A DNA stretch of 46,324 nt, the filler included, from Jimgerdemannia flammicorona (taxonomy: Eukaryota), in the NCBI GenBank assembly GCA_003990765.1. It is 2 parts of 2 records of this genome, joined end to end, with 100 filler letters (N's around TTAATTAATTAA, not from the genome) between each part and the next. Parts side by side here need not be neighbours in the genome. Positions count along the whole stretch, not along the records: positions 1 to 23,114 come from RBNJ01001156.1; 1 more part is not named here. One strand, 5' to 3'. The stretch's first letter is position 1; the number at the start of each line of letters is the position of its first letter. Under the pieces are notes generated by a model. The model saw only the letters and a program-made list of their open reading frames with translations, was not told where the DNA came from and did no database searches. The position numbers were made by a program, and so were the translations under genes. Below are positions 4,566-45,989 of this stretch, piece by piece.

Positions 4566-4575
4566 AGAAGGAAGA
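4566..4575 (+). other. Polypurine tract of copy A
   Basis: AGAAGGAAGA immediately before TATAATGG; the same tract precedes TGTAATAG in copy B (15791-15800). Confidence 0.75.
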
Positions 4576-6110
4576 TATAATGGTGATCCCAGAATGATGA
4601 CATCAGCACAGGAGATAGTCTTTCCTTGCAAGCCACCAGATTGGAGCACAAGAAGATCATATGGCATATGAGATGAGCAATGATGACTAACTGTGAGTCA
4701 TTGTGATCATAGTATAGTATTTTGAGGAATATAAAAGAAGGATCAAGGAACTGCAATAGCAGCAATCAACAAGACCCACCAATCCCAAAATAGCTCAAAG
4801 ACTTACCACAAACAAAATGCCTGCTGCCCACCAAACCTCAAGATCAAGGAACCACCAAGATATCTCAGTCAAAGAAAGGATGTTCCAAGACATCAGAAGA
4901 GTCACTCAAGAAGGACTCCTAGTGTCAACCTGGGTATCAGTGATCCTTATCACTATATCCTCTACCACTATGAAATGGAAACAAGGATCACTATTGCTAC
5001 TGAATACCTCCAAATGTGGCAGGAGTACAAAATAGGAAACCTCCTCAGCTGGGAGTTCCTACAGGCCAGCCCTCAAGAGCTACAAGATGCCACTCCCATA
5101 GATATACATGAGGTAAGAACAGCTAAGAAGATCCATCAGATCTTCAGGCATATACCATGGTCAATCCCCAACTTGGAGTATGTTAGAGTCTCAGATTTCA
5201 GAGACCTGTCATCCCACCATATCAATGCACTAGAAGCCAGGGTGGCTACAGAAGCCCAGTCCACCAATGTCCTCAATAGTGATGAAGTAGAAGACTTCTG
5301 GCATCCCATCCTTCAGGACAACCCAGACCAATTTCTGTAAGGATTGATCTCAGTATTCCAAGGCCCAAGCATCCAGGTTAGACCTCACCAAGACTCCACA
5401 TTTGTTCCCTATTTTGTGGAAGAGAACCTCATAGACTGGAGAGCTCCAGATCTCCTTGTTCTTGATTTCTCTGCCACCAAACATAATGATGTCATTGGCA
5501 ATGATGTCATCCTACATGATATCAAAGTACACGAAATGTGCAACCTACATGATCTTGACAAAATGTTCACAGACCTCATCTCCTTCGAAGACATCCTGAC
5601 CTCTGATGATGAGGATGAAGCTCCCATGATCCTGAACATTCTGCTCTAAGTCCCTTGTTACACTGAATAATGTCAGCACTGGCATTTGATGTAAGACTGA
5701 ATAATGCCAGCACTGGTATTCTGATATGACACCAAATTATACCAGCACCCTGAATCTGTACAACCATTAGTGCTGACTCTGGAACTTAGCAGTTTTTCCT
5801 ATCCTGGCATTTTATTTTAGTTATTGGAATTTATATTTAGCTTTATATCTTAGTAACCATTGAATTATATTTTGTTTAAATATTCCTCTTATTTCCTCTG
5901 AAATAAAGTCAGTCAAGTTCACTTACATACACTTCTTTACAAGCAATTTAAGAGATAACAAGACAGTTAAAGATAAGAAGTTTAAGGATTATAAGATCTT
6001 GAGAAGGCACTCCAATAAGAACTTGCTTATAACAAACTTGAGTTAGTCTAAGAGATACACCTTGAAGAGAATCTGGCATATTTGAAGGACTCAGTGACCA
6101 CTATATGATA
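4576..6110 (+). repeat. 3' LTR of copy A (~1535 bp)
   Basis: Aligns end-to-end with 8579-10113 and 15801-17338. Starts directly after the PPT and ends ATGATA (mutated GTGACA). Confidence 0.85.
4817..5649 (+). pseudogene. LTR-encoded accessory ORF, copy A (10-nt deletion near 4890, one internal stop)
   Basis: ORF-track pieces 4817.., 4975..5340 and 5344..5649 join into one protein by comparison with the two LTRs of copy B. Confidence 0.75.
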
Positions 6111-7805
6111 CTAAATAATAATTGATGCTGAGTTCTAATCTAGATATAATTTTTATATAATTGTCTTCTGAATATTGAATTGTAATTTCAGTAGATACTA
6201 GGGTTCTTTCTTTTACAGAAATGGTGACTAATTTGACTGAATATAGGTTAAGACCAATGACTCCTTCTGATTGATATTATGAAATCTGAGTTTAGTATTT
6301 CTAAATAAATCAAATCAATTTAAATTAAATTAGGGATTTTTCAATTTAAATAAATTTTGAATTGAATCAAATTTAAATTGAATTGAGGGTCTAATTTAAA
6401 CTCTATTTTTAGAATATAATACTTAATGAAAATATATCTAAATTTAATAATCTTTAGTTTTTAGATTCATCTTATATAGTAGAATTTAATAAGCTAAAGA
6501 TTATTAAATTTGGACATATGTTTGTTGAGTTATTATATTTTGAAAAATAGGGTTCAAATCAAATTTCAAATCAAATTAGCATTTAATTTGATTTAATTCA
6601 TTAAGAGTACTACCTGAGTCTTTGAGTATAGCTTCTTAATCTTAAGTTCTGGCTAACTAGTAATAGAGTTGATAGATATATCTTTGGACAACATAGTAAC
6701 TAGTCTTGCAGATTTACTTGTCTTCTTAGTATATTTAGTTGCAATATATCCTGTCTGGTAGCAGAAAAAACATACTTTTGACTTCTTCAGACATTCCTTC
6801 TCTTCAAAAGTAAGCTTGATGTTTTTCTTATTTATAGAGTCTAAGTCTATTGGGGCTAGTTTTATAGTTCTAGACTAGTTCTTATTATAGTTCTCAAAGT
6901 AATTCTTCTTGTAGTGTTCTGATTCAAAACAGTGACTATAAGTGATAATATTAAATCTATTAGCTATTCTTATGACTTCTTTAAGAGATTCTAGTTCTTT
7001 TAGCTTGATCTTAACTTGTATATTTCTCTTTAAGCCTCAGATATACATAGCAGTTAATTTTCTCATCTTCAGTAATATCAGATAGCTCTAAGAGAATTGA
7101 CAAAATTATATATTATAATATTATATAAATTTAGATTACTTGATGTTCACTAACCTATCTCTAGTTAGTTTAGTAATGTTAGTAAGCTTGAATGACTTGT
7201 AAAAGACTTCCTTAAAGACTGTCTAGTCTTGTATTCTTATTTCTCAATAGCTAGATATAGTTATGATATAATTATATTACTAGAATATAGCATTTTCTTA
7301 GAGAAGGGTAGTAGCAAATTGTACTTGTATATCTTCTTTTATTCTTATAAGTTTGAAGTATTAGTTAAATTAGAAGGTCTGGATATCAGTAGATAGTCCT
7401 CCTCAGTGACCATTAATGGTATATATCTAGTTTGAGTGACTTGAAACTAACAGATATAATTGTGAGATATACTAATATTATACTTCTTATTTTCTATTAT
7501 TCTAGCTATACTTATAGATATTAGAGCTAGTATACTATAGTGATAATCATTTCTATTAGGTCTACTTATATTTCTAGATCTATATCTTCTACTGTAAAGA
7601 GTTCTGACTAGTTCACTAGTTCTCAGTTTATTTTAAGTTTGTATAACTAGTTGTAACTAATTTCTAAATTTATATAAGATTTCTTAATAAGGTAAAATAT
7701 AACTTTACTACTACTAAGTATAACAGTTTTAGTTTTTTTTTAAGAGAAAGCAACTAAATCTAGAAGTATTCTGGTGAGCCTAAAGTAGCTTAAAGAGATA
7801 CTTAT
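6111..7805 (-). mobile_element. Heavily mutated fragment of the chromovirus family (part of 5' LTR 7719-7805, gag, N-half of dUTPase)
   Basis: Collinear with 44718-46072; CCHC knuckle remnant ~6733-6772, PMDLD-like motif ~6840-6853, LTR start TATAACAG at 7719. Confidence 0.85.
6293..6612. mobile_element. hAT-type hairpin MITE (~320 bp) with 8-bp target-site duplication
   Basis: Termini TAGTATTT...GAGTACTA; long internal inverted repeat (TCTAAATTTAATAATCTTTAG ~6437 / CTAAAGATTATTAAATTTGGA ~6494). TSD tctgagtt (6285-6292) / cctgagtc (6613-6620); single empty-site copy tctaagcc at 44892-44899 in the sister element. Confidence 0.8.
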
Positions 7806-8578
7806 CCATCTTTAGTAAGTTATATATCTGATGAGAGCTAGGATATTATCTTCTAGATTATAGATTTTGAGGATTTTCTTTGTAAGTTTCTTAGCTTGGT
7901 CTTTTTGAATCTTAGTTCTGTTATCTTCTCTCTTGAGTATATATACTATAATATCTTAACTAAGGTATATTTTCTCATACTAGTAGTTAGCAGCTTAAAT
8001 ATTTTCCATAGAGATAATATCTTATTACTTATAAGGACTGTTTTTAGTTCTCAACTTCTCACTGTCTTAGAAATCAGTAATCTTCCCTGTTAGAGATAGG
8101 GAGAAGAGTAGCTAAGAGCTATACCTCTGTATAGATATAGTGGTCTCTTCTTGACAATTGTTTTACCAGTATAATAGTTATTTCTTAAAATATAGTTATT
8201 TATATAACAATTACTAGAGATGCTGGTTTAGAGTATCTTTGCTTTTCTTGCTGATTCAATAAGTGATACTGATAGCAGTAGTCTTGTGGAGAGTGGAAGA
8301 CCATTTGATACTAATATCTTCTTAGTCAAAAGGCTCTTTTCTGATTTATTTTCTGTCTTAGAACAATAGTAACTATACTTGGTCCTTTTTCAGTATTTCA
8401 GAGATTATTATCTTCTAGTGGTATCTAGTGAGAGTTATCTTAGAAGATTAGCTCAGAGAGTTCTTCTGATTTGGATACTTTTTTATCAGTTATTTTTTAT
8501 CTTAGATTACTTATACCTCTATAGCTTTAGTTGTAGGTATCTTTTACAAATAGTTGTATTTCTTTTTTTTCTTTCTAC
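7806..8578 (-). mobile_element. Fragment of gypsy family 2 (protease-dUTPase linker region), left of the copy B insertion
   Basis: The reverse complement matches ~31853-32661, e.g. ATGGTCTTCCACTCTCCACAAGACTACTGCTATCAG vs ATGGTCTTCTACTCTCCCTAAGACTACTGCTATCAG (32161). Confidence 0.85.
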
Positions 8579-8832
8579 TATAATGGTGATCTCAGAATGA
8601 TGACATCATTACAGGAGACAGCCTTTCCTTATAAGCCACCAGATTGGAGTACAAGAAGATCATATAGTATAACTCACTAAGGCTATGAGATGAGTAATAA
8701 TGATCAACCATAAGTCATCATAACCACAAGACAGACATCTCAAGGAATATAAAAGAAGGATCAAGAAACTACAGTAGCAGCAACTCAAACAAGGCTTACA
8801 AAAATAGTTTAAAAAGACTTACCACAAACAAA

Positions 8833-9615
8833 ATACCTGTTGCTCACCAAACCTTAAGGTCCAGAAACCACCAAGACCCCTCAGTCCAGGAAAGGATATT
8901 TCAAGACATCAGAAAAGCTATGAGGATCTATACAAGAAGAACTCCTAGCCTCAACTTGAGTACTAGTAACTCTGATCATTATATTCTCTATTACTATAAA
9001 ATAGAAATAAAGATCACTATTGCTACTGAATGCCTCTGGATGTAGCAGGAATATGAAATAGAAAACCTCCTCTACCAGGAATTCCCTCAGACCAGTCACC
9101 AAGAAATATAAGATACTACCTCTATAGATATATGTGAAATAAGGACAGCCAAGAAGATTTATCAGGTCTTCAGGTATACACCATGCTCAATCCCCAACTT
9201 AAAGTATATTAGAATCTCAGACTTTAAGAAACTATCAGCCTGCTATACTAATGTACTGGAGGCCATAGTGGCTACAGAAGTCCAGTCTACTATTACTCTC
9301 AATAGTGATGAGGTAGAAGAGTTTTGGAATTCCATCTTTCAGAACAATCTAGATCAATTTCTGCAAAGATTGATCTCAGCATTCCAAGGCCCCAGCATCC
9401 AAGTTAGATCTCCCCAAGACCCCACATTTATTTCTTATTTTGTGGAAGAGAATGTCATAAATTGGAGAGCCTCTACCACTACTGAATGTGATGACATCAT
9501 CAGCAATGATGTCATCCCACATAATATATACAAAATGAATAAAACATTTATGGATCTCATTTCCTTCAATAGTAATAAAGATGAAGCCCCCATGGTTCTG
9601 AACATTCTGCTCTAA
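8833..9615 (+). pseudogene. LTR-encoded accessory ORF in the 5' LTR of copy B (260 codons, frame intact)
   Basis: Start mutated ATG>ATA. Single frame to TAA at 9613-9615 with only two internal stops (TAG 9043 for TGG; TAA 9109 for CAA), both sense codons in copy A. Confidence 0.8.
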
Positions 9616-9871
9616 GTTCTTGGTGATACTGAATTCTACTAGTATTCTTTTTCTATATAACTGTTATTCTTCTGGCATTCTGATCTTGCATAACTCAGAA
9701 ATTCTTCTGGTATTATTTTTCTGTTCTACTGGTATCCTGAACTTATGCAACTATTTATATAGACACTTGAATTTGTACTTATAACTATTGTTTTCTATGT
9801 TTCAGTATTTTATTTGGTTATTGGACTTTATATTTAGCTTTATATCTTAGCAACCATTGAATTATATTTTG

Positions 9872-9904
9872 TATAAATACCCTTCTTATTTTCTTTGAAA
9901 TAAA
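9872..9904 (+). promoter_or_regulatory. Putative LTR TATA box (TATAAATA 9872-9879) and poly(A) signal (AATAAA 9899-9904)
   Basis: AATAAA is present at the equivalent position in all three LTR copies; TATAAATA is also in the 3' LTR of B (TTTAAATA in A). AT-rich context lowers certainty. Confidence 0.5.
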
Positions 9905-10116
9905 GTCAGTCAAGTTTACTTACACTCAATTCCATATAAGCAATCTATGTAAGAGATAATAAGACAGTTTAAAGATAAGAAGTTTGAGGACTATAAGCTC
10001 TTGAGAAGATACTTCAATAAGAACTTGCTTATAACAAACTTGTGGTTAGTCTAAGAGATATACCTTGAAGAGAATCTGACATATTTGAAGAACTCAGTGA
10101 CCACTATATGATAACT

Positions 10117-10135
10117 TGGTGCCTATTGGCTGGTG
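10117..10135 (+). other. Primer-binding site of copy B
   Basis: TGGTGCCTATTGGCTGGTG just after the 5' LTR; the TGG start is complementary to tRNA CCA. The tRNA is not confidently assignable. Confidence 0.65.
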
Positions 10136-10181
10136 ATTCAAGAAAAATCCCTCACTTTTAAGCTGAAAAACGAAAAACTAC

Positions 10182-13100
10182 TATAACAACTATTCTGACT
10201 ATAAGAGTCACCCCTGCAAGAATTCAAGACAAGATGGACATCCCCCCACATTCTATAGATATACTACTGAAGAGTCAATCCTGATCTTCATTGAAGACTT
10301 TGAACAATTTGCTGCTATATGAGTCCTCAATATAGATGCTCAATTGGCTCTTCTACTAGTCAGCCTCAGAGGACCTACCAGAGACAAGTTCAATACAACC
10401 ACCATTACTGATGTTAATGCAGCCAAACTTGCCAACATGAAGACCTTCCTCAGAACTATATACTATACTGAAGAGATCAAGCAAGCTCTTAAGGATTAAC
10501 TCAATACTATCTGCCAGAGACTTAGTGAAGATTCCAACTCATTCTATATCTGAATCTGCTACCAGATTTTCTTGGCTGACTATGATGATACCCTCAAGGA
10601 ACAAATAGCTGATTCAACCTTCCTCAAAGAAGTTCACTCTGAAATTGCCCTAGCAATCTGGTCTATTCCAGCTGCACTTACTCTTGATCAGAAAGTGGTC
10701 TTTATATAGAGATATTAGACTGTCAGATACCTAACTAAATACTTAATAGAGAAAATAACTGGCATCAAGATGGAGTCACAAAAGCTAACCAGTATTATAT
10801 CCACCATAGTTGTAAACAGACAACTATCTCCACCTACCCCCAAGGTAGCTAAAGTTGGCCCAGTGGAAGAACTTGCTAAGCAGTTTGCTGAGATGACTGC
10901 ACACCTTAGTGATGTTGTTAGAGAAGTCCAAAGTGCCAACAGGAGACCAGTATAGAGATTTGTAGTTGCTATAGAAGAATGCAATATCACATACTTCAGA
11001 TATGAAGAAGAAGGCAACTATACAAAGAGTTGTATGACTGAAACAAGATACAAAGCCCAACTAAGCAATACTATCAGAACTAGAGAACAAACCAATACAG
11101 TAGTCATTGAGGAGATTGGTGACACTGATGATGAAGAATATTATGAGGAGTCTGAATTCTACCCTATTACTGAAGATATCAGAAACTGCTCCAAGCCCTA
11201 TAACAAGAAGAGCAACAGTAAGCTAGTTGGAAGACCAAAGAAGACCCCAGCTATCACTATTCAAAGCAAGACCCAATCTGAGGAGATTGATCAAGACATA
11301 AAGTTAGATAAAGCTATCTGCCAAATTATTGAAGATATTACTCTAGTCTCAGGATAAGTGAAAGCAAGAAAGAACAGAAGCTATGCAAGACCAAAATCCA
11401 TTAGTATAATATTTACAAGGACCTCAAGGAATAGAAGGTCAATTCTACTTTTGAACAACTAGCTGAAGTCCCTGCCTTCAGACAGCAGTTAAGAGTAAGA
11501 CTTGCAATCACTGTCAAGAACTAAGAGTATAAGATCATAGAAGCTCACAATGTACAAAAAAATGAACAAGAAGACTCAGGTGAAAAATCTGAAGACCAGT
11601 GCAAGATATCAGCCTATACTCTATATCAGATTGAAGATTATATCTTTGATGCCATCATTGATACCAGTGCTGGAGGATACCTCATAAGCAAGAAGACAAT
11701 TGACTGCCTAGGCTGGGACATTGAAGAGTCCACCAAAATGGTCTATATCACAGCAGATAGTACATGAGCTACTCCCCTAGGCAAGATCTGAGAAGTCTCC
11801 ATCAAGATAGGAGGAGCTATCATCTCAGTAGATGTAATTGTTACAAGTGCCACCAACTATGATATCCTCATTGGCAACTAATAGCTTCATAAGGCCAAGG
11901 CTGTCATTGACCTCAATACCCAGAAGATATAGATTAACTATAGAGGAAGAAAGGTATGAGTCTCTATCAATGTCCACAAAGGAGTTCTACCAGACATGGA
12001 GAAAGGAGATGAATAGGACACAGAAGTCTTCATGCACTCAGTATATAAGAACAAGAGCAAGACACCCAAGCTCACAGATGAGCAGTGGTATAACAAGATT
12101 ACTGATGGCTATACTTCTCAAGGAAGATGCCTCCATAGTACTAGAATATACTATGCCAAATACCTGAATGACTACTGGTTCTATATTAGTGAAGTCAGAA
12201 AATTCCATCAATAAAAGCATTAGCAAGAAGCTACTGAAGCAAAAAAGAAAGCTGAAGAAGATGACCAGTCCCCAGAGCTTCAAGCTGATAGTAATAATGA
12301 GGAGAAACAAGAACCAGACATCACTTTCAAGGTCAAGAAGTTTTATTCTGAAGCTAAGATCTCAGAATACATATAAGACTGAAGGAGTTATAGGAATGGA
12401 CCTTGCCAGCATTCAAGATGCTATCCTCAAACCACAGACCACTACTCTACTTGACATAAGAATTGGAGTCAAGTTACCAGAGAACAATGCTAGAATTATC
12501 AAGATCAGGAGCAGTCTGACCAAGAGTGAAATCTTGATTAAAGGAGGAGTCACTGACTCTGATTATACTGGCAAGATCTTCCTCATAGTCAGGAACCACA
12601 ATCCCACCACTCCATTCAAAGTCAAGAAGTATGATAGAATTGGCCAGATACTGATCCATGGAGTCAAGAAGCCTAAGATCACTGAAGTCATCAAACTCAT
12701 CAAGACTAAGAGAGGAGAACAGACTTTGGATCTACTGGAAGAGGAGTCTATACTACTACCAAGATTACTGAACTTGAGCACAAGAAAGACAAGGACCAGA
12801 ATAAGCATACATATATCATTGGAGAAAACTTTTCCCTAGAAGAACAACTTCTCAAGATCCTATACCAGAATAAAGGAGTACTCACTACAGACTTCAGAGA
12901 CATCCACAATAAAGAACTCAAGTACTATCACAAAGTTGATACTGGTGATATCAAGCCCATCTATCAGAAAGCCAGACCCATACTATCTATCTACAGAGAA
13001 TGGCTGCAAGCAGAACTTAAGGAAATAGAAGAAGCTGGTATCATCAAGCAAGCTATTAGCCCCTGGGCTTCACTCATTATCCTTGCCCCAAAGAAAAGAA

Positions 13101-15463
13101 GCAAGCCTGGAGAGTTTGTCCCAAAACTCTGCATTGATTATAGGAAGCTCAATACAATCACTAAGAAGGATAAGCAGCCTTTGCCAAATATTCAAGAAAT
13201 TCTTACTATTCTTGGAAGTGAAGCCAAATACTATACTACCTTGGATCTGTTCTGAGACTTCCATCAGATCAGTCTCACTCAAGATGTCAGTAAGAAATCA
13301 GCCTTCATTACACCTGATATCACCTATGTCTACCTGCAAATGCTATTTGGAATGTGTAATATCTCAGCAAGTTTTCAGTGAATGATGAACAGAGTCTTTA
13401 GCAATAAGATTGGAAAATAGCTCTTTGTCTATATTGATGATGTGATCATCTGCAATAACAATGCACAGAAATATATCAACCATATACAGCTAGCTCTCAG
13501 AAAGCTCAAGGAGTATGACCTCTATATCAAGTTTAAGAAGTGTAAGTTTGCAGCTCAGGAAATCACCTACCTAGGACACATCATTAACCAGACTGGAATT
13601 TACATGGACCCTATGAAGATTGAGACTGTTGCAGCCTACCCAAGACCCAGAACAACTACAGAAGTCCATGTCTTCCTTGGACTGGTCTCCTACTATAGAA
13701 GATTTATCAAAGGATACTCCAATATTGCAGTACCTATCTACAAGCTACTGAAGAAGGAGACCAAATTCAAATGGACCAAGGAATGTCAAGAAACCTTCAA
13801 TGAACTCAAGACTAGGTTGACCCAAGCACCCATTCTTAAAAGACCAGATTATAACCTAGAATTCATCCTGCAGACAGATGTAAGTATTATAGAACTTGGA
13901 GCAGTCCTAGCTCAGAAGAAAGATGGACATGAATATGTCATCTCCTATGTAAGCCAAGGTACCCATGGAGTAGAACAGAACTATGAGTCATATAAGCTAG
14001 AATACTTAGTAGTAGTTTGAGTAGTAGACAGTTCCACTACCTTAGCTGAGAAATACTTCACTATTCAAACAGACCATTCTGCTCTTGCCTCGCTATTCTA
14101 TACTCTGAACCCCAAAGAAATATATGCCAGATAGATCTACAGACTGCAAGAGTATAACTGTACTATCAAGCACTGCTCAGGAAGAACCAATACCAATGCT
14201 GATGTACTCTCAAGGACACCCTGAAACACCTCCATCAAGACTATTCAATATGAATAAGAAGCTATACTATAGATTAATCAGCTACCTTAGGTAGTAGAAG
14301 ATGCCCAACTATCTCAAACCCTGGACTATCACCATCATCAACTAGACTTGGAAACTATTTGAACTAGATAACACTATACTCAGAAAAGGAGGAAAGCTCA
14401 TAATACCTGAACACAAGAAGTATCAAGTAGTGAAGGAAGTATATGAACAAGGATACCTAAGAGGAATTAATACATATGACAAGGCAAGAAGAACTATGTG
14501 GTGGCCTAAGATAGAAGAAGACCTGTACCAAATTGTCAAAGGGTGTGACAAGTACCAAAAACAGAAACAAGATCAGCAAGACCAGACATCTGAGTTATCA
14601 AGAATTGAGTCTATCCCCTTCTACCACATTACAATAGATATCATTAGACCACTACTAGTAATATTATCAGGAAACTACTACATTATAGTTATTGTAGACC
14701 TCTTTACCAAATAGATAGAAGCAGGAGCATTACAAGAAGCCAATGCTCTCTCTATAGTCAACTTTCTATACTGAGAAATTATCTACCACTACAAGACATC
14801 AGGGCAAATCACTACAGACTGCAGCACAGATTTTGTCAATGGATTCTATGAGATAATATATCAAAAATACAAGATTCAGCATATCAAGACCACTATGTAC
14901 CACTCTCAAGGAAATGGACAAATAGAAAGAACTAACAAAACTCTCAAGAACATCTTGGCAAAGATCTCAGACACATATGATAATTGAGATAACTACCTCC
15001 CAACTGCCCTCTCTGTCCTATGAGATATATGGTCACAGAGTACATACTTTACCCTAAGAGAACTGCTCTTTAGAGAAGAAGATTCTGATGGAACCTCAGC
15101 CATAAATCTAGACCTAACTTGGAGACAGATTGACTTAGAAATCCAGAGACTGCACCAAATCAGGAAGAAGACTGAAGATTATATCATCAAGTCACAAGCA
15201 CTGATAAGGAAGAATGCAGAAAAGAATTACAAGACCCTAGAACCCATCCAAATTTGAGAAAAGATTCTACTGTATCAAAATATAGTAGAAGCCTCATACT
15301 GGAGCCCAAATGAGAAGGACTCTTCTACATACAAGATATCAAGGGAACTATCTTCTGGCTTAGAAAACTCTCAGAGACTATACTGCCTACTATGGTATAC
15401 AGGAATAGACTCAAGAAGTACTATGAACCTATAAGAGAAGCAAAACATGATGACTGCCCATGA
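10182..15463 (+). pseudogene. Degenerate gag-pol of copy B
   Basis: Gag PTF..FIEDFEQFAA..SLRGP, mutated CCHC knuckle (10992-11033), DAIIDTS(G)AG protease (~11648), YIDD RT (13430-13441), FILQTDVS RNase H, integrase, EGLF (GPF) at ~15314. Confidence 0.92.
12326..12739 (+). pseudogene. dut: dUTPase domain of copy B
   Basis: GVIGMDL, IRSSL, GGVTDSDYTG, DRIGQ, RGEQ/DFGSTG. Confidence 0.9.
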
Positions 15464-15790
15464 GGTTCTAGTCCATGAATCATAACAGCATATCCTATAA
15501 CTAGCAGGCAATCTGTCTAGACCATTCTCTAAGGGATATAGTACCAGCAACTACTCATCTATGAGACTTTCAGAGCCAGAAGAGTTTGAACTATCAACTA
15601 ATTAGTCAAGATCAGAATCAGGCCCTTGCTCTATTTGAAGAGAGTGATACTTCACCATCATATCATAATATATAGAGAAGATACCAGCTCATAAATACTA
15701 CTTTTCGACCCCCTGCCAGAGGTTATGAGATCAGCAATTTTTTTTAGACTGGACCAATGAATAAGGATATATAAGAGAAGATTCTTATTT

Positions 15791-15800
15791 AGAAGGAAGA
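15791..15800 (+). other. Polypurine tract of copy B
   Basis: AGAAGGAAGA directly followed by TGTAAT. Confidence 0.8.
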
Positions 15801-17338
15801 TGTAATAGTAATCTCAGAATGATAACATTATTACAGGAGACAGTCTTTCCTTATAAGCTATCAGATTGGAGCATAAGAAGATCATACAGCATAACTCACC
15901 CAGGCTATGAGATGAGCAATGATGACCAACCATGAGTCATCATGACTACAAGATAGACATCTTGAGGAATATAAAAAAAGGATCAAGAAACCACAGTAGC
16001 AGCAACTCAAACAAGGCTCACAGAAATAGTTCAAAAAGACTTACCACTAACAAAATGTCTGCTACTCACCAAACCTTGAGGTCCAGGAACCACCAAGGCC
16101 TCTCAGTTTAGAAAAGAATGTTCTAAGACATCAGAAGAGCTATGAGGACCTACACAAGAAAGACTTCTAGCCTCAACCTGGGTACTGGTAACTCTTATCA
16201 TCATATCCTCTACTATCATAAAATGGAAACAAGGATCACTATCACTACTGAATACCTCTGGATGTGGCAGGAATATGAAATAGGAAACCTCCTCTGCCAG
16301 GAATTCCTTCAGGCCAGTCACCAAGAAATATAAGATGCCACTCCTATAGATATATGTGAAATAAGGATAGCTAAGAAGATTTATCAGATCTTCAGGCATG
16401 CACCATGATCAATCCCCAACTTGGAGTACTCTAGAATCTCAGACTTCAAGGAACTGTCAGCCTGCTATACCAATGTACTGAAGGCCATGGTGGCTACAGA
16501 AGTCCAGTCCACTATCACCCTCAATAGTGATGAGGTAAAAGAGTTCTGAAATTCCATTCTCCAGATCCAGATCAATTCCTGTAAGGATTGATCTCAGCAT
16601 TCCAAGACCCCAGTATCCAGGTTAGACCTCCCCAAGACCCCACATTTGTTCTTTATTTTGTAGAAGAGAATGTCATAGATTGGAGAGCCTCCACCACTAC
16701 CAAACATGATGACATCATTGGCAATGATGTCATCCCATGTGATATATGCAAAATGGACAAAATATTCATGGATCTCATTTCCTTCAATAGTGACAAAGAT
16801 GAAGCCTCCATAGTTCTGAACATTCTTGCTCTAAGTTCTTGGTGATACTGAATTCTACCAGTATCCTTTTTCTGTATAACTGTTATTCTTCTGGCATTCT
16901 GATCTTACATAACTCAGAAATTCTTCTGGTATTCTTTTTCTATACCACTGAGATCTACTGGTATCCTGAACTTATACAATCATTTGTACAGATACTTGAA
17001 TTTGTACTTACAACTGTAGTTTTCTGTATTCTAGTATTTTATTTGATTATTAGACTTTATATTTAGCTTTATAACTTAGCAACCATTGAATTATATTTTG
17101 TATAAATATCTCTCTTATTTTCTTTAAAATAAAGTCAGTCAAGTTCACTTACACTCAATTCCATACAAGCAATCTAAAAGATAACAAGACAGTTTAAAGA
17201 TAAGAAGTTTGAGGACTATAAGACCTTGGGAAGGCACTTCAATAAGAACTTACTTATAACAAACTTGTGGTTAGTCTAAGAGATATACCTTGAAGAGAAT
17301 ATGATATATTTGAAGGACTTGGTGACTACTATATAATA
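15801..17338 (+). repeat. 3' LTR of copy B
   Basis: Direct repeat of 8579-10113, differing mostly by transitions. Confidence 0.88.
16055..16834 (+). pseudogene. LTR-encoded accessory ORF in the 3' LTR of copy B
   Basis: ATG at 16055 (MSATHQTLRSRNHQ...); same protein as 8833-9615, with stops, a 4-nt deletion near 16564 and a 1-nt insertion near the end. Confidence 0.75.
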
Positions 17339-17529: not shown

Positions 17530-19473
17530 ATGAGTATTCCAAGATGTATACTGGGTAGAGGGGCCCAAGTATATTCAACTAACAATATGTGGGGAGGGGC
17601 TCTAGCTTGGGAGAAGCATGAGGGGCTGCTGGTGGGTAGATGTGGAAGGAGAGGGAGTAGTATTGGAGGACAGAGAATCAGAAGAGTGAGCTTTGTGAAT
17701 AAGGTAAAGGAGAGACAGCTGGCAACTAGACTAGAGGGTTGGCTGAGGATGGGCAAGGAGGAGGCAAAGACTGTGAGGCAGCAGCAGCAGGGGGGAGTCT
17801 CTCTGGAGGGCCAGAGTAGTGGGGCTAGTGGTGTAGTGGCTGAGGGGGTGACTGCTGATGAGAGCATGATAGGCAATCTGGAAAAAAATCCAGATGAGAC
17901 TACTGATAGTGGACTGGATGATGGGAAGGGCACAAGGCCTAGTAACCTGGCTGATAGTATAACAAGTCTGGTGGTGGCCCCATTACTCAAGAAGTTGATC
18001 TCAGAGTTTGTAGTTACCTTATGCTTCCAGGGCTTGGTAGTGACAGTAAAAATGGTTTTGAGGCTAATTACTAAGCAGATAAATAGTGCAGCATCTGTTA
18101 AGTTTCTGAGGGGCCTGAAAGGGGTAGAGGTGGGCTTTGAGAAGACAGGACTATTGGAGAATATACTGAAGGCTGGGTTGACTATGTGTTCTGATGGTGC
18201 ACTACTTGAGGTGGAATCCCAGAGTGGTGTAGTTTCTAGTGAAAGGAGTTTCCATGATGACTGCTATGGAGATGAGAAGGAGAGTGAAAGAAGTCATGGC
18301 TGAGTATAGGGAGGTGGTTGATGTAGGGTTCAGGGTCTGGGAAGGGACCTCTTTCTGGACAGAGAATGTTGACATCTGGATTTAGTTGGCAGAGAGGGTG
18401 GGGAGCCTTTGTGTACAAGGTGATAAGGGTGAAGGAGAGTGAGGAGGAGGAAGAGGACCTGTTGGAGGCACTGGAGGAGCTGAGTAGTGTAGTGAAGCAG
18501 AGGGCAAAGACTTGAAAGGCATATATAGAGTTAATCTACTTGGAGATTGTGGATGGGAGGCATATCCACATTGACAAGAGAATGTGGGAGAGATCCCAAG
18601 AGCACAAGAGGTAGAGAAAGTTGCTGGCAAATCTGAAGGAAAAGATGATAAAGGTTGCTAGTGGTATTGAGGTTACTGGAGGAGCTAGGGTGAGTGTCTG
18701 GACCAGTGGACATAGAGGGAATATAGAGGTGAGTCCAGAGGAGGCTGGGAAGGCACCAAGCAAGGACCCATATAAGGATAGTACTTTTGAAGTCTGGGAG
18801 GATACTCTTCCTCTTCTTATCAGGTAGAGACTAGCTATGAGGGACTGGGTGAGAGAGAATGTACCAATGCATGGTGCCCAGTGAGTGCACTTTGGAGTTT
18901 CTGAGGTAGTGAAAGGGGGATAGGTGGTGGCAGTAGGTGAGGATGAACTGGTGGAGGAGTGGGATGAGACTGCAAGTGTAGGAGCAGATATCTCAATAAT
19001 GGGTGAAGGAAGGCTAGGGAGGAGAGAGGTGGGAAATCTTCAATGAATGTGCTGGATGATGAATAACTTAGTGGCTGAGGAGTTGGGAGAAGTGAACTTG
19101 AGAGTAATGAGTGATGAGTATTGGGCATAGATCCTATATAGTGATGGAGTGGTAGAGGCTCTGAAGACAGAGGTACTTGTAGTTTTCTTGGAGGAGGAGG
19201 GGTATGAGGTCAATAAGAGGAGAGAGGCAGAGCTGGTGGTTGCTGTTGGAGAGCAGGCTGCTCTCTGGTGGGCAGAGCATCATAGATTGTAGCTCTGGCA
19301 GGAGGCCTGCCTAGAGTATTGTAAGGACTTTGAGGAAAAGGAGAATGGGAAACTAACTGAACTTCTGACTGGATTGGAGGTGAAGAGAGTTGAAGAGGAG
19401 GAGGTGGCTGGGGAATATAACTTGGACTTGGCATAGGAGGAGATGAATATAGAGTTGTAGAGGATATGCATAA
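17530..19473 (+). pseudogene. LINE ORF1 (degenerate)
   Basis: Position upstream of the APE; the SF(A)(D)KVK motif is shared with the copy at 1-284. End approximate. Confidence 0.65.
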
Positions 19474-19491
19474 CTCTGAATATTATTTTTT

Positions 19492-22400
19492 ATGAATAGT
19501 ACAACAAATATTTTTTCTTTGAATGTGAATGGGCTGCAGGGTTTGGTTAGGCATTAGAACATTTTTACTTAGCTGAAAGGCTTGGAAGCTGATCTCTTTT
19601 TCTTATAGAATGTTAGATATGAAGATGACTTGGACAGTCTGCAATAGATGAAGGAATGGGGAGGTGTGGTAGTTTGGAAGAGCAAGGTTGGGATCTTAGT
19701 CCAGAGAGACAGAGGGAAGATACAAGAGTCTGGGAGCTGGGGTGATAGGCTGATCTGGGGAGAGTAGATTTGACCAGATTGGGAGCTAGTTACAGTGGGC
19801 TCCTACTACTGCCCTGCTGTATATGGTGAGAGAGTGGATTGGGTGAAGGGACTTCTGGAGAGTGGGGCCCTCACAGAGGCTGGAGTGGACATTCTTAGAG
19901 AGGACTTTAATATGGTCCAGGATATATAGGTGGATAGGACTGATGGAGGGCAGGGAGCTGAGAGTAGGAGCAGGGGTCTAGTGGCATGTGAGGAAGTAGA
20001 GAGGCTAAGCTCCCTAGTAGACACTGGCAGGGGGTTCTGGGAAGATAGGAAGATTTATATGCACTGGATAAATAGGTTAGAGATAAGGATTGACTGAATG
20101 CTGATGGTAAACTACTAGGGGTTGGATGTTTGGAAATCATTGGAAGCTGAGTGGTGTCCATAGTCTGATCACTGGAGGTTGTTGGGGCAGAGTTACTTTG
20201 GGGGAAGTGGAGATAGGTCTGGACATTGGTGCCTTAATTCCTCCTTATTAGCCAAGAAGAAGTTGTGGGTTAAGTAGGTAGGGGACATTCAGCAGAGATT
20301 GGAGGGTTGGGTATGGGAAGGGGCCTCAGTGGATATTCATTGGGTGAGGCTAAAGGAGGCTGCTAAGGTTTACTGAAGTGTAGCAGACAAGGTAGCAGGA
20401 AGATAGAGGAGGAGGAGGATAACCTAGGCCTCTGCTAGATTGGCTGACCTCTTAGAAGATTGGGTGGGGCTCTTGGCCCTGGTGGGGGTAGAGGATTGGA
20501 GGGTGATAAGGGCAAAGCTGGAGATTGTGGAGTTACAACAGGTATTGCAAGAGGAGGAGGAGATACAGGTGCAGGGTTTGGCTGCATAGCTATGCTGGCA
20601 GAGGCTGGAGGAGGGGAAGAGGCCCTCTAAGTACCTTTTCAGGTCCCTTTGGGTGAGAAGAGTGAGACAGCAGTAGGAGGGAGTCTTCAATTCTGATGGG
20701 CTACTAGTGCATAGTTTGCAGGATATTCTGGGCTTGCTGAAGGAGAGGTGGAGTAGTTTGTAGAGTGAGGAGGAGAGTGGAGCTGATGCTACTACCATAG
20801 AACATGTTCTGGAGGAATGGTACCCACTGCAAGCAGATGGGCTAGGCAACTTAGTAGTGCCAGTACAGGAGGAGGAAATTTGCCAGGTTCTTGCTATAAC
20901 TATGCCAGGTACAGCACCAGGAGAGGATGGTCTGCCCTAGGACTTTTGGAAGAAGATGGTAGAGATCCCTGGAGTGCTGGGAGAGATGATAGTGCTTTAT
21001 GACTTAGTACTATAGTTAGGAAAGTAGGTGGGTGAGCAGGATCTGGGGCTGATGGCACTGCTTTTTAAGGACAAGGATAGGAGAGAAGACTGGAAGAACT
21101 GATGGCCTATTATGCTTCTGGATATGGATAGGAAGTTGGTCACTAAGGTAGTGATAGCAAGGCTGCAGAAGGTAACTCAACAGGTCTTGAGAGAGGAGCA
21201 GCAAGACTTTGTAGGGGGCTGACTTATTAGAAATGATATGGCATGAGTGTATGGCATTATTGAAGGAGTATGAGTCTGTGGTCTAGATGGGAGATTGGTC
21301 TTCTTGGATCAGGAGAAGGTGTATGATCATGTTCAGCAGGTCTGGCTGGCAAAGGTCTTAGATAGGATTGGTATCCCTCAGTAGTTCAGAGAGACAATGA
21401 TCAGTCTGTTAGAAGAGAGCAGGGCAGTACTTATATATAATAGATATAGAGGGGTGGCATTTACCCTGGAAAGGGGTGTTCTCCAGGGGAACCCACTGTC
21501 TTCTATTTTGTATAATCTGTTCTTAGAGCCATTGATGGATAGAATTCAGAGGAAGATTGTAGGGCTCTCAGTATTTGGTGTTGTGTGGAAAGTTGGAGCC
21601 TTTGCAGATAATATAGTAGTTGGTCTGGATTTGATTGCTGATATCAAAGAACTCCAGGAAACAGTGGAGTGATATGAGACACACTCTGGAGTGAAACTTA
21701 ACTGGCACAAGTATGAAACAATGGTGTTAGGCAATGGTCTGGTGGGAGGGGATATCATTGGAACAATTGTTCCTGCAGGAGAGACAGTGAGATACTTGGG
21801 CATCTTTCTCTCAGTATATGGGTCAATCCTACCAAGACCTTGGTGGAAGTAGTGGGTGGTGATCTGGGGGGAGACCCTGTGGAGTTGGGGAGGACACTAC
21901 TTGTCTTTGGTGAGGTACATTATAATTTTGAATATCTACTGGCTGCCAAAGTTATAGTACTTAGTATATCATCTGGACTTTCTGGCCTGGGTGGTAAAGA
22001 GGTTACTGAAGCTGGCCAAGGATTGGATCTGGGCTGGAAGAAGAAGTCAGATTGGCTGAGAAATCTTGTCATTGCTGGTGGCTAGAGGAGGACTTAGTCT
22101 GGTTGACTTCTCAAAGAGGCTACATTGCCTGAGAGTATAGTGGCTGAGGAGAGCAGTAGAACTGAGAGGTAGTGGCTGGGTTCTGCTGATGCAGAAGGTC
22201 TGAGAGATAAGGTGCTCACTAAGAGAGTCCACTGGAGATCTACTATCCTTAGTTGGGCTTCAAGATAGTAGATACATGTAGTATAGGGGCTTCTGGTGGA
22301 GTGTAGTTGGTGGGGCTCACTGTATTGGAATTTGCTAGCAAGGGGATGAAGGGGAGATATCTTGGGGCCTGGTGATATAGAGATGAGATCAAGTATTATT

Positions 22401-23111
22401 GAGAGGCACTCTCCTTATAGACTTTGATATTGGTGATGGGGTTGAATGCCAGTGGGGGTTGGGACAAAATGCATGGCCTAGCAATTAGCAGATAGTAGGT
22501 ATTAGAGAGGAGTGAGACTGGAATGGGGTCTGGGCCTGGAGTGCAGAGATATGGTAATAGTTACCACCTAAATACTGAGTGGTCTGGTAGTGCATACTGT
22601 GGAGAAATATTATACTCAACTTCCACTCAGGCCATCTGGTAGAGGGAGGGAGCTTCAACTGTAAGAAGTGTTATAATATAGAACAGGAAGGGGATTTTGT
22701 ACAGATGCCTAAACATTGGCTGGGGGAGTATGAGATACTTGAGGACTTTTGGTTAGTAGTTGGGAATCACTTGAGAGTGGTAAGAAGGGGAGATGGTGAG
22801 AGGAGTAGATGGGAGGATCTGAGGGATATATTGGTGGGGGAGGTTGGGAAGGAGTGGCTCACTTTGGGTTGGGTGTTGGTAGTTTGAGTGAGGCTAACAG
22901 GTCACTGGTTGTTTGTTTTTGAAGAAGAGAGGTATATGAGTTTGGGGGAGCAGTTGCTGAGGTAGGAAGGGTTGATGGTAGACATTTTAACAGACTGATA
23001 GCTGGGGTGGGGTCTGCAGAGTAGTTGGTGATACTGTTTGGTAGAGAAAATCTATAGGTAGAGTGAGGAGAGAGTTGGAGTAGTGGGTGAAAGAGTGGTA
23101 TTCAAGCATAA
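19492..23111 (+). pseudogene. LINE ORF2: AP endonuclease + reverse transcriptase (degenerate)
   Basis: FSLNVNGL, EDFN (GDFN), SDH (20164), WCLNSSLL, APGEDGLP, N*WPIMLL, FLDQEKVYD, GVLQGNPLS, AFADN (YADD site), VRYLGI, C-terminal CKKC. Confidence 0.92.
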
Positions 23112-23114
23112 GAG

Positions 23115-23214
23115 NNNNNNNNNNNNNNNNNNNNNNNNNNNNNNNNNNNNNNNNNNNNTTAATTAATTAANNNNNNNNNNNNNNNNNNNNNNNNNNNNNN
23201 NNNNNNNNNNNNNN
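23115..23214. other. Artificial contig/scaffold linker
   Basis: 44 N + TTAATTAATTAA + 44 N = 100 bp; the palindromic 12-mer gives stops in all six frames. Confidence 0.95.
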
Positions 23215-23355
23215 GGGTGGCGGCGGAGGTGGTGGAGGGAGCGGCGGGGGCAGCGGGGGTGGCGGCGGAGCCGGTGGAGGGAGCGGCGTGGGCGGCGGGA
23301 GGTGGCGGGAGCGGCGGGGGGGGCGGTGTGGACGGCGGTGGCGGGAACCGGGGGT
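23215..23355. repeat. GC-rich low-complexity/tandem repeat (~42-bp unit x2), possibly Pro/Ala/Thr-rich coding on the minus strand
   Basis: GGGTGGCGGCGGAG..GGTGGAGGGAGCGGCG is repeated; the minus strand can read AAPSTGSAATPAAPAAPSTTSAAT. Confidence 0.5.
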
Positions 23356-23364
23356 GTATATGGT

Positions 23365-24114
23365 CTACTCGTCGGCAAACCAGGTCCGCTTGATATATTC
23401 TATCTGCGTAGAGACTAGTTCGTCGATATTCTCGAGAAGCCGAAATTTTTGAAGGCCGCCGTACTCCTTAATACATAATGCGTAGCGGTTTGTGCCGTTG
23501 CTGCAACCCTTGGAGTTGGCGATGCGAATTTCGGCGTCGCCGATCCAGAGCATGCTCTTCAGCTCGTGGATCGCCTTGTTGATTACACCTTCATCCGAAG
23601 CGGGAGTCAAGAGTTCGCACCGAGATTCGATAGCGGCACGGTAGCTGTTGGAGTTGAAACACAGTTTACCATCCTTGCGACAACGACGACACGGACGGCC
23701 ATCGACGCATCTCTTTTTGTTGACTTTGCACCGGGCACATATCGTTCCGGGAGAGGCCCTTTTATTGACGGTGACGTAACGGCTGCCATCCGAAATTAGA
23801 TGCGGACTTCCGTGAGGTTCGCTGTTATTTGTTGGGATGTTAATGGGAGGATCCAAGTTGAGGTGGACTGCGGCACTTTGCTGGATAGCTTCGTCGTTTG
23901 TTTGGACTCTGTTGTGACTTTCGGCGTTCAGGTGAACTAGAAGGTTGTCCATGCCCAAGAAGATCTTCGTGCATGTAGGGTAGGGGCAGTAGATAAATTT
24001 CGGTATGCTGCTGTGGGCGCCATTGACGTGGTCCAGGAGGTTCTCCATGCCGTGGTTGATACATGGGCATGCGGGAAAGGGACAGCGTACGTATTGGTTT
24101 GTATCGGAAGACAT
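23365..24114 (-). CDS. Zinc-finger protein with two C2H2-like fingers and a Zn(II)2Cys6 binuclear cluster (putative transcription factor)
   Basis: Uninterrupted 249-aa ORF. CPFPAC..HVNGAH and CPYPTC..HLNAESH fingers; CARC-x6-C-x5-CRRC-x6-C fits the Gal4-type consensus; normal CpG content. Confidence 0.8.
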   Translation of the reverse strand: MSSDTNQYVRCPFPACPCINHGMENLLDHVNGAHSSIPKFIYCPYPTCTKIFLGMDNLLVHLNAESHNRVQTNDEAIQQSAAVHLNLDPPINIPTNNSEPHGSPHLISDGSRYVTVNKRASPGTICARCKVNKKRCVDGRPCRRCRKDGKLCFNSNSYRAAIESRCELLTPASDEGVINKAIHELKSMLWIGDAEIRIANSKGCSNGTNRYALCIKEYGGLQKFRLLENIDELVSTQIEYIKRTWFADE

Positions 24115-32844: not shown

Positions 32845-33243
32845 GCCCTGCTACATCCTAAGGCCAAACCCCTGACCAAAGCTTACTCAGAAGATATAGG
32901 GTATGATATTCACAGTCTGGAAGATAAATCCATCAAGTCTGGAAAAACATTCATGATCAGAACTGAACTAGCTATGCAGCTACCTTAAGAAACTTATATA
33001 CAATTGACCTCAAGGTCTGGACTTGCCAGACAAGGAATAACTATAGAAGGAGGAACCATTGATCCAGGATATACAGGCAAAATCAAAGTCATCCTACACA
33101 ATAATAGTGCAGAATGGCACTGAATTATTAAAGGACAGAAGATTGCCCAAGCAGTCTTTATGAAGGTCAAAATCCCCCAATTATAAGAAATCTCTGAACT
33201 GACTGAAGGAAAAAGACAAGCTAAAGGATTTGGAAGTTCAGAT
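32845..33243 (+). pseudogene. dut: dUTPase domain of family 2
   Basis: LLHPKAKP..DIGYDI, SRSGLA, GGTIDPGYTG, GQKIAQ, RQAKGFGSSD in one frame. Confidence 0.93.
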
Positions 33244-36635: not shown

Positions 36636-36663
36636 AGGATTGTCTGAGGGCAGATCATTCTTT

Positions 36664-36675
36664 AGTGGGGGCTGA
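36664..36675 (+). other. Polypurine tract of family 2
   Basis: AGTGGGGGCTGA directly before TGTGACA. Confidence 0.7.
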
Positions 36676-45975: not shown

Positions 45976-45988
45976 CCACTATTACTAA
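45976..45988 (-). other. Probable tRNA-Leu-type primer-binding site
   Basis: Minus strand TAGTAATAGTGGT next to the LTR end differs from TGGTGGCAGCGGT only by G>A/C>T changes; the sister copy reads TAGTAGTAGT. Confidence 0.5.
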
Positions 45989-45989
45989 G

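Follow-up and report, generated by a model that had tools for sequence, protein, structure and literature searches.

A probable accessory gene lying wholly inside the long terminal repeat of a Ty3/gypsy retrotransposon from Jimgerdemannia flammicorona

The long terminal repeats (LTRs) of a Ty3/gypsy retrotransposon from Jimgerdemannia flammicorona contain an open reading frame (ORF) of about 260 to 278 codons, which is found wholly inside the LTR in all three LTR copies of the analyzed stretch of DNA (46,324 nucleotides, hereafter the window). Very probably, the ORF is a genuine, element-family-specific accessory gene within the 1.54-kb LTR, of which the window holds three dead relics under heavy C>T/G>A decay. 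Two further layers are more tentative: each LTR may be a self-contained RNA polymerase II unit, to which we give slightly less than an even chance, and the protein might be a soluble nuclear regulator, a rather unlikely reading that is drawn from its amino acid composition. For the explanation that combines all three layers, the chances are judged to be balanced.

The window contains one full element and the 3' LTR (copy A) of another, the 5' part of which runs past the window start. Their features are as follows:

4576-6110, plus strand: LTR copy A, 1535 bp, beginning directly after the polypurine tract at 4566-4575
8579-10113, plus strand: LTR copy B, 1535 bp, the 5' LTR of the full element at 8579-17338
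15801-17338, plus strand: LTR copy C, 1538 bp, the 3' LTR of the full element, beginning directly after the polypurine tract at 15791-15800
4566-4575 (element with copy A) and 15791-15800 (element with copy C), plus strand: polypurine tract (PPT) AGAAGGAAGA
10117-10134, plus strand: PBS-like sequence with TGGTGCC as its first bases, 3 nt past the end of the 5' LTR (copy B)
10114-15800, plus strand: internal region with many stops and frameshifts, including a gag-like part with a CCHC-like knuckle
about 11627-11890, plus strand: PR (Pfam)
about 12366-12722, plus strand: dUTPase (Pfam)
about 13127-13585, plus strand: RT (Pfam)
about 13775-14155, plus strand: RNase H (Pfam)
about 14403-14570, plus strand: IN zinc domain (Pfam)
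about 14613-14894, plus strand: IN core (Pfam)

The element is a Ty3/gypsy (Metaviridae) LTR retrotransposon with the organization gag-PR-dUTPase-RT-RH-IN. The class assignment made in an earlier note on this DNA stands: paired long terminal repeats, the order of the pol domains, a PBS-like site and a PPT are all present. Pfam searches found the order PR-RT-RNase H-IN, with a dUTPase between PR and RT, in both element copies. The position of the dUTPase, together with a loss of CpG that is restricted to the transposable elements (observed/expected ratio of 0.00-0.08 in the element copies versus 1.04 in the window at 24-30 kb), makes a fungal element plausible. Excerpts of one study describe dUTPase-bearing fungal Ty3/gypsy elements, namely Tmt1 from Tuber and PosPlaTy3-5 from Postia placenta, and PosPlaTy3-5 likewise has its dUTPase between PR and RT (PMC2864245). 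A chromodomain at the C-terminus of the integrase, a feature of the Tcn1-/Tmt1-like chromovirus clade, was not found at E≤0.001 in any of six read-through frames of the two copies; this absence is weak evidence because the element copies are degraded.

The gene-sized ORF that had been reported from all three LTR copies was recovered in each of them:

4817-5649, plus strand: LTR ORF copy A, ATG retained, with a 10-bp deletion near 4902 and one TAA
8833-9615, plus strand: LTR ORF copy B, frameshift-free, with internal stops at codon 71 (TAG) and at codon 93 (TAA) and with ATA as the start codon
16055-16834, plus strand: LTR ORF copy C, ATG retained, with a 4-bp deletion, a 1-bp insertion and several stops

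Copy B fits its previous description, as both internal stops are of the transition type and no frameshift is present; in addition, its start codon has decayed to ATA. Copies B and C differ in the ORF part by about 12.8% transitions and 0.4% transversions. The stops and frameshifts are specific to each copy, and since the ORF is broken in all three of them, nothing functional is left in this window. A tblastn search of the window with the family proteins described below gave no match outside the three LTR copies.

The following candidate promoter and poly(A) signals surround the ORF:

4730-4737 (copy A), 8748-8755 (copy B) and 15970-15977 (copy C, where it reads TATAAAAA), plus strand: candidate upstream TATA box TATAAAAG
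9872-9879 (copy B) and 17101-17108 (copy C), plus strand: candidate downstream TATA box TATAAATA, the candidate promoter of the genomic RNA; imperfect in copy A (TTTAAATA)
5902 (copy A), 9899-9904 (copy B) and 17128 (copy C), plus strand: AATAAA, the one poly(A) signal that the three copies have in common

The conserved upstream TATAAAAG with an ATG-free leader and the sole conserved AATAAA are newly seen here. The upstream box lies 85-87 nt before the start codon, which stands in the context CAAAATG and is the first ATG after the box: these 85-87 nt contain no ATG in any of the three copies, whereas six to eight ATGs occur in the 154-169 nt before the box in every copy. The conserved AATAAA is located about 285 nt past the ORF stop. 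Because of the upstream TATA box, the ATG-free leader and the single conserved AATAAA, each LTR looks like a self-contained transcription unit; splicing therefore need not be invoked, and a promoter of its own in either LTR appears at least as likely as a spliced or subgenomic route. The predicted unit would consist of bZIP-type sites, TATAAAAG, the leader, the start codon, the ORF, a 3' untranslated region of about 285 nt and AATAAA. An mRNA of about 1.1-1.2 kb, transcribed from either LTR and perhaps from solo LTRs as well, would encode the protein, and transcription of the genomic RNA would begin at the downstream TATAAATA. The stronger statement that every LTR, including solo LTRs, is an autonomous gene (promoter, ORF and poly(A) signal) for a trans-acting nuclear factor is possible, though doubtful. 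In the window, TGAYRTCA octamers occur 15 times (4.4 expected), and nine of these lie inside LTR copies. The AP-1/Gcn4-like motif TRAGTCAT was also considered; it is not enriched (7 matches versus 6.1 expected). Rfam and tRNA scans of the whole window gave no match.

Retroviral accessory genes in or over U3, such as sag of mouse mammary tumor virus (MMTV) and lentiviral nef, are expressed by splicing. The earlier note had proposed that expression would proceed from the ORF copy in the 3' LTR, through a spliced or subgenomic RNA. A need for this route is not supported, as the proposal overlooks the conserved TATAAAAG upstream of the ORF and its ATG-free leader. As an alternative, the ORF would lie in U3 above the sole promoter, be transcribed solely within the 3' portion of the genomic RNA and be translated from a spliced or subgenomic mRNA. 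This arrangement agrees with the retroviral precedent and with the downstream TATAAATA at 9872 and 17101, which is followed by AATAAA after 27 nt, an order that is typical of LTR core promoters where R is short. The segment from this TATA box to U5 is also the best-conserved part of the LTR, with 2.1% transversions between subfamilies versus 3-12% elsewhere. However, an mRNA with a splice acceptor at or before the LTR start would be burdened by the six to eight ATGs that precede the upstream TATA box in the LTR, the ATG-free stretch begins exactly at the conserved TATAAAAG, and splice sites were not identified; this route is considered unlikely on balance.

The position of the upstream TATA box allows yet another arrangement, in which TATAAAAG is the genomic promoter and the ORF, as the first cistron of the genomic RNA, lies in an R of about 1.1 kb, with a short mRNA also arising by polyadenylation at the signal of the 5' LTR. 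The box lies about 155-170 nt into the LTR, which is a usual length for U3, bZIP-type sites precede it, and the first ATG after it is the start codon of the ORF. Against this, such an R would far exceed the lengths known to us, gag would begin about 1.4 kb from the cap and behind a 260-codon ORF, and a second, well-placed TATAAATA stands just before AATAAA in two of the three copies, so that this arrangement is improbable. The previous placement of the ORF in U3 may hold: the ORF lies wholly in the LTR and upstream of TATAAATA and AATAAA, but the upstream TATA box could place it in R.

Sequence comparison shows that the ORF belongs to a real protein family. Intact relatives of 247-342 aa with 28-79% identity are contained in public protein sets from metagenomes, and these homologs strengthen the coding nature that had been claimed for the ORF. 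With the frame of the window as the query, four matches at E≤0.01 were obtained among 230 candidates; the best of them, the intact 271-aa protein P0002, is 64% identical to the copy B ORF over its full length (100% of the query covered). The copy A ORF shares 74.8% identity with P0003 in the stretch past its deletion. A profile built from close relatives only found five matches in 1,835,955,588 representatives, including P0009 (1.3e-52), P0010 (2.0e-42) and P0011 (4.0e-11), and a wider profile matched 13 proteins. The relatives are known as predicted proteins on short contigs (567-4848 bp) of ENA and JGI sets, the contig of P0010 being 4.8 kb long; a search of protein sets covers predicted proteins only and is thus biased toward open frames. 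No longer or fused forms were seen among 7999 scored candidates of 600-2000 aa, which is weak evidence that the protein stands alone. A scan of metagenome DNA with the family profile yielded a sole locus (L001, 30% over 78 residues), whose ORFs look unrelated and which was set aside as a chance match, and a scan of viral contigs gave 21 pattern matches, none of which was confirmed.

The family alignment has a conserved start, MP..R, and conserved blocks, while the subfamilies share 28-47% identity and have ORFs of 200-342 aa. Neutral DNA would lose frames of this length, with their common start and common blocks, at such divergence. Three frame-preserving length differences between copy A and copies B/C, which the earlier note had taken as a sign of coding selection, were confirmed at the subfamily level and amount to 21, 24 and 15 nt (7, 8 and 5 codons). 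The ORF contains six indels, and the three that are common to both LTRs of the full element are multiples of three, compared with none of the 11 indels in the non-coding LTR parts (Fisher p of about 0.03, computed from these counts). Purifying selection was not detected by substitution tests on the window's copies, which have low power and are confounded by post-insertion C>T decay: three of 21 transversions in the ORF copies are synonymous (14.2% expected), nonsynonymous and synonymous changes number 64 and 44 between A and B=C and 67 and 36 between B and C, the neutral control, and family-conserved codons show no depletion of substitutions. The dN/dS comparison, which had been named as a possible refutation of the gene, accordingly shows no constraint in these copies, in which any signal is swamped by the decay.

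These tests would agree with a frame that never was, or no longer is, a functional gene and that is a captured or decaying passenger in the LTR, its open relatives being the minority that gene callers report. The disruption of the ORF in all three copies of the window, the lack of a known domain or fold in the searches described below, the scarcity of relatives (five representatives in 1.84 billion) and the fact that none of them comes from an annotated genome source are in line with this interpretation. However, it would not account for the block-wise conserved frames of 200-342 codons that persist with a shared start at 28-47% amino acid identity, or for subfamily-level indels that stay in frame, unlike all 11 non-coding ones, and we regard it as quite improbable.

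The claim that the LTR is about 1.54 kb long, rather than about 460 bp, was borne out: copies A, B and C are collinear over this whole length and have both ends in common, two of them adjoin a PPT, and the third is followed by the PBS-like site, so that the full element has a putative PBS next to its 5' LTR and a PPT next to its 3' LTR. In copies A and C, the repeat begins at the base after AGAAGGAAGA, as had been noticed before; copy B opens with this same base, and unrelated AT-rich DNA lies to the left of it, before 8579. The 5' terminus of the LTR reads TG in copy C and, after G>A decay, TA in copies A and B, and the 3' terminus is TA in all three copies versus the canonical CA. Of the previously proposed target site duplication, compatibility remains, but the flanks of the full element (CTAC on the left and TTAT on the right) are equal only after two C>T changes, so that the duplication is a putative one. 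A short LTR that starts near 9620, with the boundary at 8579 as a chance junction of tandem or rearranged elements, is scarcely credible, as the unclean flanks are all that might be cited for it and both the exact opening of copy B at the post-PPT base and the collinearity of the three copies stand against it.

The encoded protein has an arginine-rich N-terminus, and its tail is strongly acidic and interspersed with bulky hydrophobic residues. Residues 1-60 carry a net charge of +8, and roughly the final 60 one of -14 to -17; the distant members P0010 and P0012 have a similar acidic tail. Two AlphaFold2 models, both of them poor (mean pLDDT of 36 with 6 sequences, and of 50 with a pTM of 0.42 with 16 sequences), predict a helical core. 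The combination of a basic N-terminus, a helical core and an acidic-hydrophobic tail suggests a nuclear regulator. According to Kyte-Doolittle profiles of seven family members, hydrophobic segments, signal peptides and transmembrane anchors are absent: the maximal 19-residue mean is 0.58-1.07 in all seven, and the N-termini are hydrophilic. The protein is thus not Env-like, as had been concluded before. The fold comparison that the earlier note had recommended, AlphaFold followed by Foldseek, was run with these poor models and gave no matches at E≤0.001 against PDB and BFVD. A PDB sequence search with the family profile found no matches at E≤10, no Pfam family reached its threshold for the window frame or the family members, and the best scores in the ESM Atlas (0.83 and 0.85) stayed under the lead level of 0.9. 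Below the Pfam thresholds, S6PP (16 bits for the window frame, cut-off 20.3) and ATG5_HBR (four of 16 members, best E of only 0.028) were rejected.

To our knowledge, LTR-borne genes are known from a few retroviruses and not from Ty3/gypsy-type transposons. The superantigen gene sag is located inside U3 of the MMTV LTR. Like sag, the ORF described here is an accessory ORF of a few hundred codons that lies whole in an LTR of about 1.3-1.5 kb, upstream of the LTR core promoter, so that each end of the element has a copy of it. In contrast to sag, it is preceded within the LTR by a candidate TATA box and an ATG-free leader, and its Ty3/gypsy host has no env. The protein shows no sequence or fold similarity to Sag (Pfam; Foldseek at E≤0.001), which is a type II membrane glycoprotein, whereas the LTR-encoded protein has no hydrophobic segment. 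Lentiviral nef overlaps U3, and foamy-virus Tas/Bel1 has an internal promoter; both resemble the present ORF as accessory genes at the 3' end of the element that reach into the LTR. By a proposed analogy, the ORF and Tas would have in common an acidic activation region and a promoter that is distinct from the LTR core promoter. Homology to Tas or nef was not found, the activation role is suggested by the pattern of charge and hydrophobic residues, and Tas lies mostly outside the LTR, whereas the ORF lies entirely inside. Following the logic of Tas, the protein may act in trans on the expression of its own element. The ORF is likely to have been located between pol and the 3' LTR formerly. It would have become part of U3 once a polypurine tract upstream of it took over plus-strand priming.

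Additional ORFs of unknown function are also described for other Ty3/gypsy-type elements, namely the plant elements Ogre and Athila and elements of bdelloid rotifers; in the excerpts of these sources, all such ORFs are internal and none lies inside an LTR (PMC6431247, PMC5408684). Ogre LTRs are long (1.9-6.5 kb), and the excerpt names no gene within them (PMC6431247). The legend of Figure 3 in the study of fungal elements lists an 'add. ORF' of unknown function in some of them (PMC2864245). A full-text exact-phrase search, which can miss such a report, found no description of an LTR-internal gene in a fungal Ty3/gypsy element. As far as these searches go, the ORF would become the first gene known from the LTR of an LTR retrotransposon if the reading of each LTR as an autonomous gene is true. 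In that case, the amount of the factor would rise in step with the genomic number of LTRs, and the element family would possess a built-in transactivator or copy-number sensor in the part that survives recombinational loss.

Should the gene be genuine and be expressed from the LTR itself, the capture of accessory genes into U3, which is already known from complex retroviruses, would also have occurred in an env-less Ty3/gypsy lineage. Solo LTRs could stay genetically active, and the family would offer a tractable orphan protein for studies of retrotransposon self-regulation or of the countering of host silencing. Since retrotransposon LTRs are regarded as control regions that code for nothing, they are masked ahead of gene prediction; a conserved LTR gene would therefore be missed systematically. 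Consistent with masking, the relatives were found exclusively in unannotated protein sets of metagenomes, never in an annotated genome. Among sequencing runs, no RNA run was listed for the window; the only listed run, a DNA run labeled soil metagenome, contains 7% of the window's words, and its contigs yielded 5609 matching pieces at 80% likeness (553 of them at least 99% alike), which cover all 30 bins of the window; the element family is thus abundant in this run.

The first 17.3 kb of the window contain an LTR retrotransposon, which is present as one 5'-truncated copy and one full copy (8579-17338). A search for repeats, together with an alignment of the three sequences, revealed a unit of 1,535 to 1,538 bp in three collinear copies, one at the 3' end of the truncated element (A) and two at the ends of the full element (B and C):

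4576-6110: LTR copy A, first base directly after the polypurine tract AGAAGGAAGA
8579-10113: LTR copy B, beginning at the base equivalent to the start of A and C, after unrelated AT-rich DNA
15801-17338: LTR copy C, first base directly after the polypurine tract AGAAGGAAGA

The last base is identical in position in A, B and C, and a PBS-like TGGTGCC is found 3 nt downstream of the end of B. The starts adjoining the polypurine tract, the common end and the PBS-like site identify the whole unit as the LTR, in line with the length of about 1.54 kb proposed in the earlier note; a short LTR is without support, since B starts at the tract-equivalent base after unrelated DNA. As for the target site duplication suggested there, the full element is flanked by CTAC and TTAT, which match only when two C>T changes are assumed. 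The 3' terminus of the LTR is TA, not CA, in all copies.

Read-through translations of both element copies contain, in this order, Pfam matches to an aspartic protease, dUTPase, reverse transcriptase (RT), RNase H, an integrase zinc domain and the integrase core, and no match to a chromodomain. A dUTPase between protease and RT is a feature shared with PosPlaTy3-5 of Postia placenta, according to PMC2864245, and PMC6431247 describes the same position in Tmt1 (Tuber) as well as in elements from rotifers and planarians. A fungal host is plausible on this basis. The element copies are old, hypermutated relics: CpG observed/expected is 0.00-0.08 compared to 1.04 in the presumably genic stretch at 24-30 kb, 165 transitions and 10 transversions separate B from C, and C>T changes favour the CpA context (44/73 in B, 23/43 in C). 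The 2.5-kb spacer between the two elements (6111-8578; 27% GC, zero CpG, TpA excess) has the appearance of an older repeat, decayed throughout, that served as the insertion site of the full element. Run X1, a publicly available DNA run with a soil metagenome label, contains thousands of contig pieces from the element family (5609, of which 553 are at least 99% alike). Many of these pieces show C or G at positions that are T or A in the window, consistent with mutation having affected the window copies.

As previously noticed, all three LTR copies contain a gene-sized frame (A, 4817-5649; B, 8833-9615; C, 16055-16834). In B, the frame has no frameshift and is interrupted solely by the two transition-type stops already described (TAG at codon 71, TAA at codon 93); its start codon has decayed to ATA. 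Copy A retains the ATG and carries a 10-bp deletion and one TAA, and the frame of C is disrupted by several stops, a deletion of 4 bp and an insertion of 1 bp. Six indels are found in the frame: three are copy-specific (10, 4 and 1 nt), and three are common to both LTRs of the full element (21, 24 and 15 nt) and were thus already there when it inserted. The latter are the frame-preserving length differences between A and B pointed out earlier; in the non-coding parts of the LTR, 0 of 11 indels are a multiple of three.

That the gene is real is indicated mainly by relatives of the encoded protein. The read-through frame of B matched four proteins with E values of 8.7e-99 to 2.9e-51 (230 candidates from a collection of 5.8 billion proteins), the best being an intact 271-aa protein with 64% identity across the whole query. 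A profile built from close relatives only matched five proteins among 1.84 billion cluster representatives, including the distant P0009 (1.3e-52), P0010 (2.0e-42) and P0011 (4.0e-11), and a broader profile retrieved 13. Their alignment comprises at least three subfamilies with 28-47% identity to the 271-aa member (lower for the shortest fragments, P0016 and P0017), with MP..R at the start and several blocks of conservation in common, followed by a variable, indel-rich and acidic C-terminal tail. Neutral DNA would not be expected to stay open and alignable over 200-342 codons at this identity, with the caveat that a protein database lists open frames only. All relatives are predicted proteins from contigs of 567-4848 bp in ENA and JGI sets, nameless or annotated as 'hypothetical protein'.

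The window copies themselves show no constraint: of the 21 transversions that separate A from B=C, 3 are synonymous, compared to 14.2% expected, the nonsynonymous/synonymous counts (64/44) are indistinguishable from those of the neutral B versus C comparison (67/36), and neither set of differences avoids codons conserved in the family. This is the outcome that the earlier note had named as a reason to doubt the embedded gene; the tests are weak, however, because most differences stem from post-insertion decay. An accessory gene embedded in the LTR appears well supported at the level of the family, whose members outside the window are known as predicted proteins on short contigs, and has no backing from substitution statistics in the window.

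The protein has no assigned fold or family. Pfam gave sub-threshold noise only, a PDB sequence search yielded 0 matches at E<=10, and the ESM Atlas nothing reaching the 0.9 level; AlphaFold2 models were poor (pLDDT 36 and 50), and Foldseek found nothing at E<=0.001 in PDB or BFVD. Using tblastn, family members matched solely the three LTR copies, none in gag or pol; a longer, fused form was not found, which is weak evidence. The N-terminus is hydrophilic and a hydrophobic segment is absent; the protein is therefore not Env-like, in agreement with the earlier note, nor is it Sag-like. A net charge of about +8 in the first ~60 residues is followed by a predicted helical core and by -14 to -17 in the last ~60, where aromatic and aliphatic residues are interspersed; acidic tails also occur in the distant members P0010 and P0012. 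By composition, the termini resemble an arginine-rich nuclear-targeting or nucleic-acid-binding segment and an acidic activation-type tail.

By position, the closest analogue is MMTV sag, where the U3 of a long LTR contains an entire ORF, and by proposed logic it is foamy-virus Tas, an acidic activator with its own promoter; neither is a relative, as no homology and no membrane anchor were found. Full-text literature searches returned no description of an LTR-internal gene in a fungal Ty3/gypsy element; in PMC2864245, the legend to Figure 3 attributes an 'add. ORF' to certain fungal elements. The arrangement may represent carriage of a gene for an orphan protein in U3, in the manner of retroviruses, by a Ty3/gypsy element that lacks env.

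The frame was previously placed upstream of the TATA box and poly(A) signal. Both are indeed present downstream (TATAAATA at 9872 and 17101, TTTAAATA in A; a single conserved AATAAA at 5902, 9899 and 17128), but a second TATA box (TATAAAAG at 4730, 8748 and 15970, the last reading TATAAAAA) precedes the frame, 85-87 nt before the start codon in all copies. The 154-169 nt before this box contain 6-8 ATGs and the 85-87 nt after it none; the start codon context is CAAAATG. Each LTR would thus provide a promoter, a clean leader, the ORF, a 3' UTR of ~285 nt and a poly(A) signal, with a predicted mRNA of 1.1-1.2 kb from either LTR. Expression from the upstream TATA box is tentatively favoured as somewhat likelier than a spliced subgenomic RNA. 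The latter, proposed earlier on the basis of the downstream signals, is rather unlikely; given the second TATA box and ATG-free leader, it is not the sole route to consider and probably not the best. That the upstream box is the genomic promoter, placing the ORF within a very long R, seems improbable.

The window has an excess of ATF/CRE-like octamers (15 compared to 4.4 expected); nine of the 15 lie in LTR copies, with A and B each having one close to where the LTR starts. In every copy, two to three TGAYRTCA octamers 15 nt apart occur in the part encoding the C-terminus:

9492-9514, 5487-5524 and 16710-16732: TGAYRTCA clusters within the LTR ORF

They may be regulatory sites that coincide with coding sequence, or merely reflect repeated D-D-V/I codons.

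Elsewhere in the window, the + strand of 18000-23500 is strongly purine-rich (GC skew +0.3 to +0.54, AT skew near zero, CpG observed/expected 0.24), and its long frames have no Pfam match. Tandem arrays of GGC/GGN-rich (23215-23345) and TCC type (29232-29396; GC skew -0.5 around 29-30 kb) probably represent low-complexity repeats in the coding sequence of host genes, in the stretch at 24-30 kb where CpG is normal. A second, different retroelement is present within 30000-38000 (CpG observed/expected 0.25; RVT_1 match at 33960-34574, + strand, E 2.9e-23), where no match to the LTR-ORF family was found. Finally, direct repeats at 40430-40761 and 45983-46303, ~83-84% alike, 5.5 kb apart and surrounded by DNA of 24-30% GC with a CpG observed/expected of 0.03, probably represent the LTR pair of a third element, which is heavily decayed and runs to the window end.
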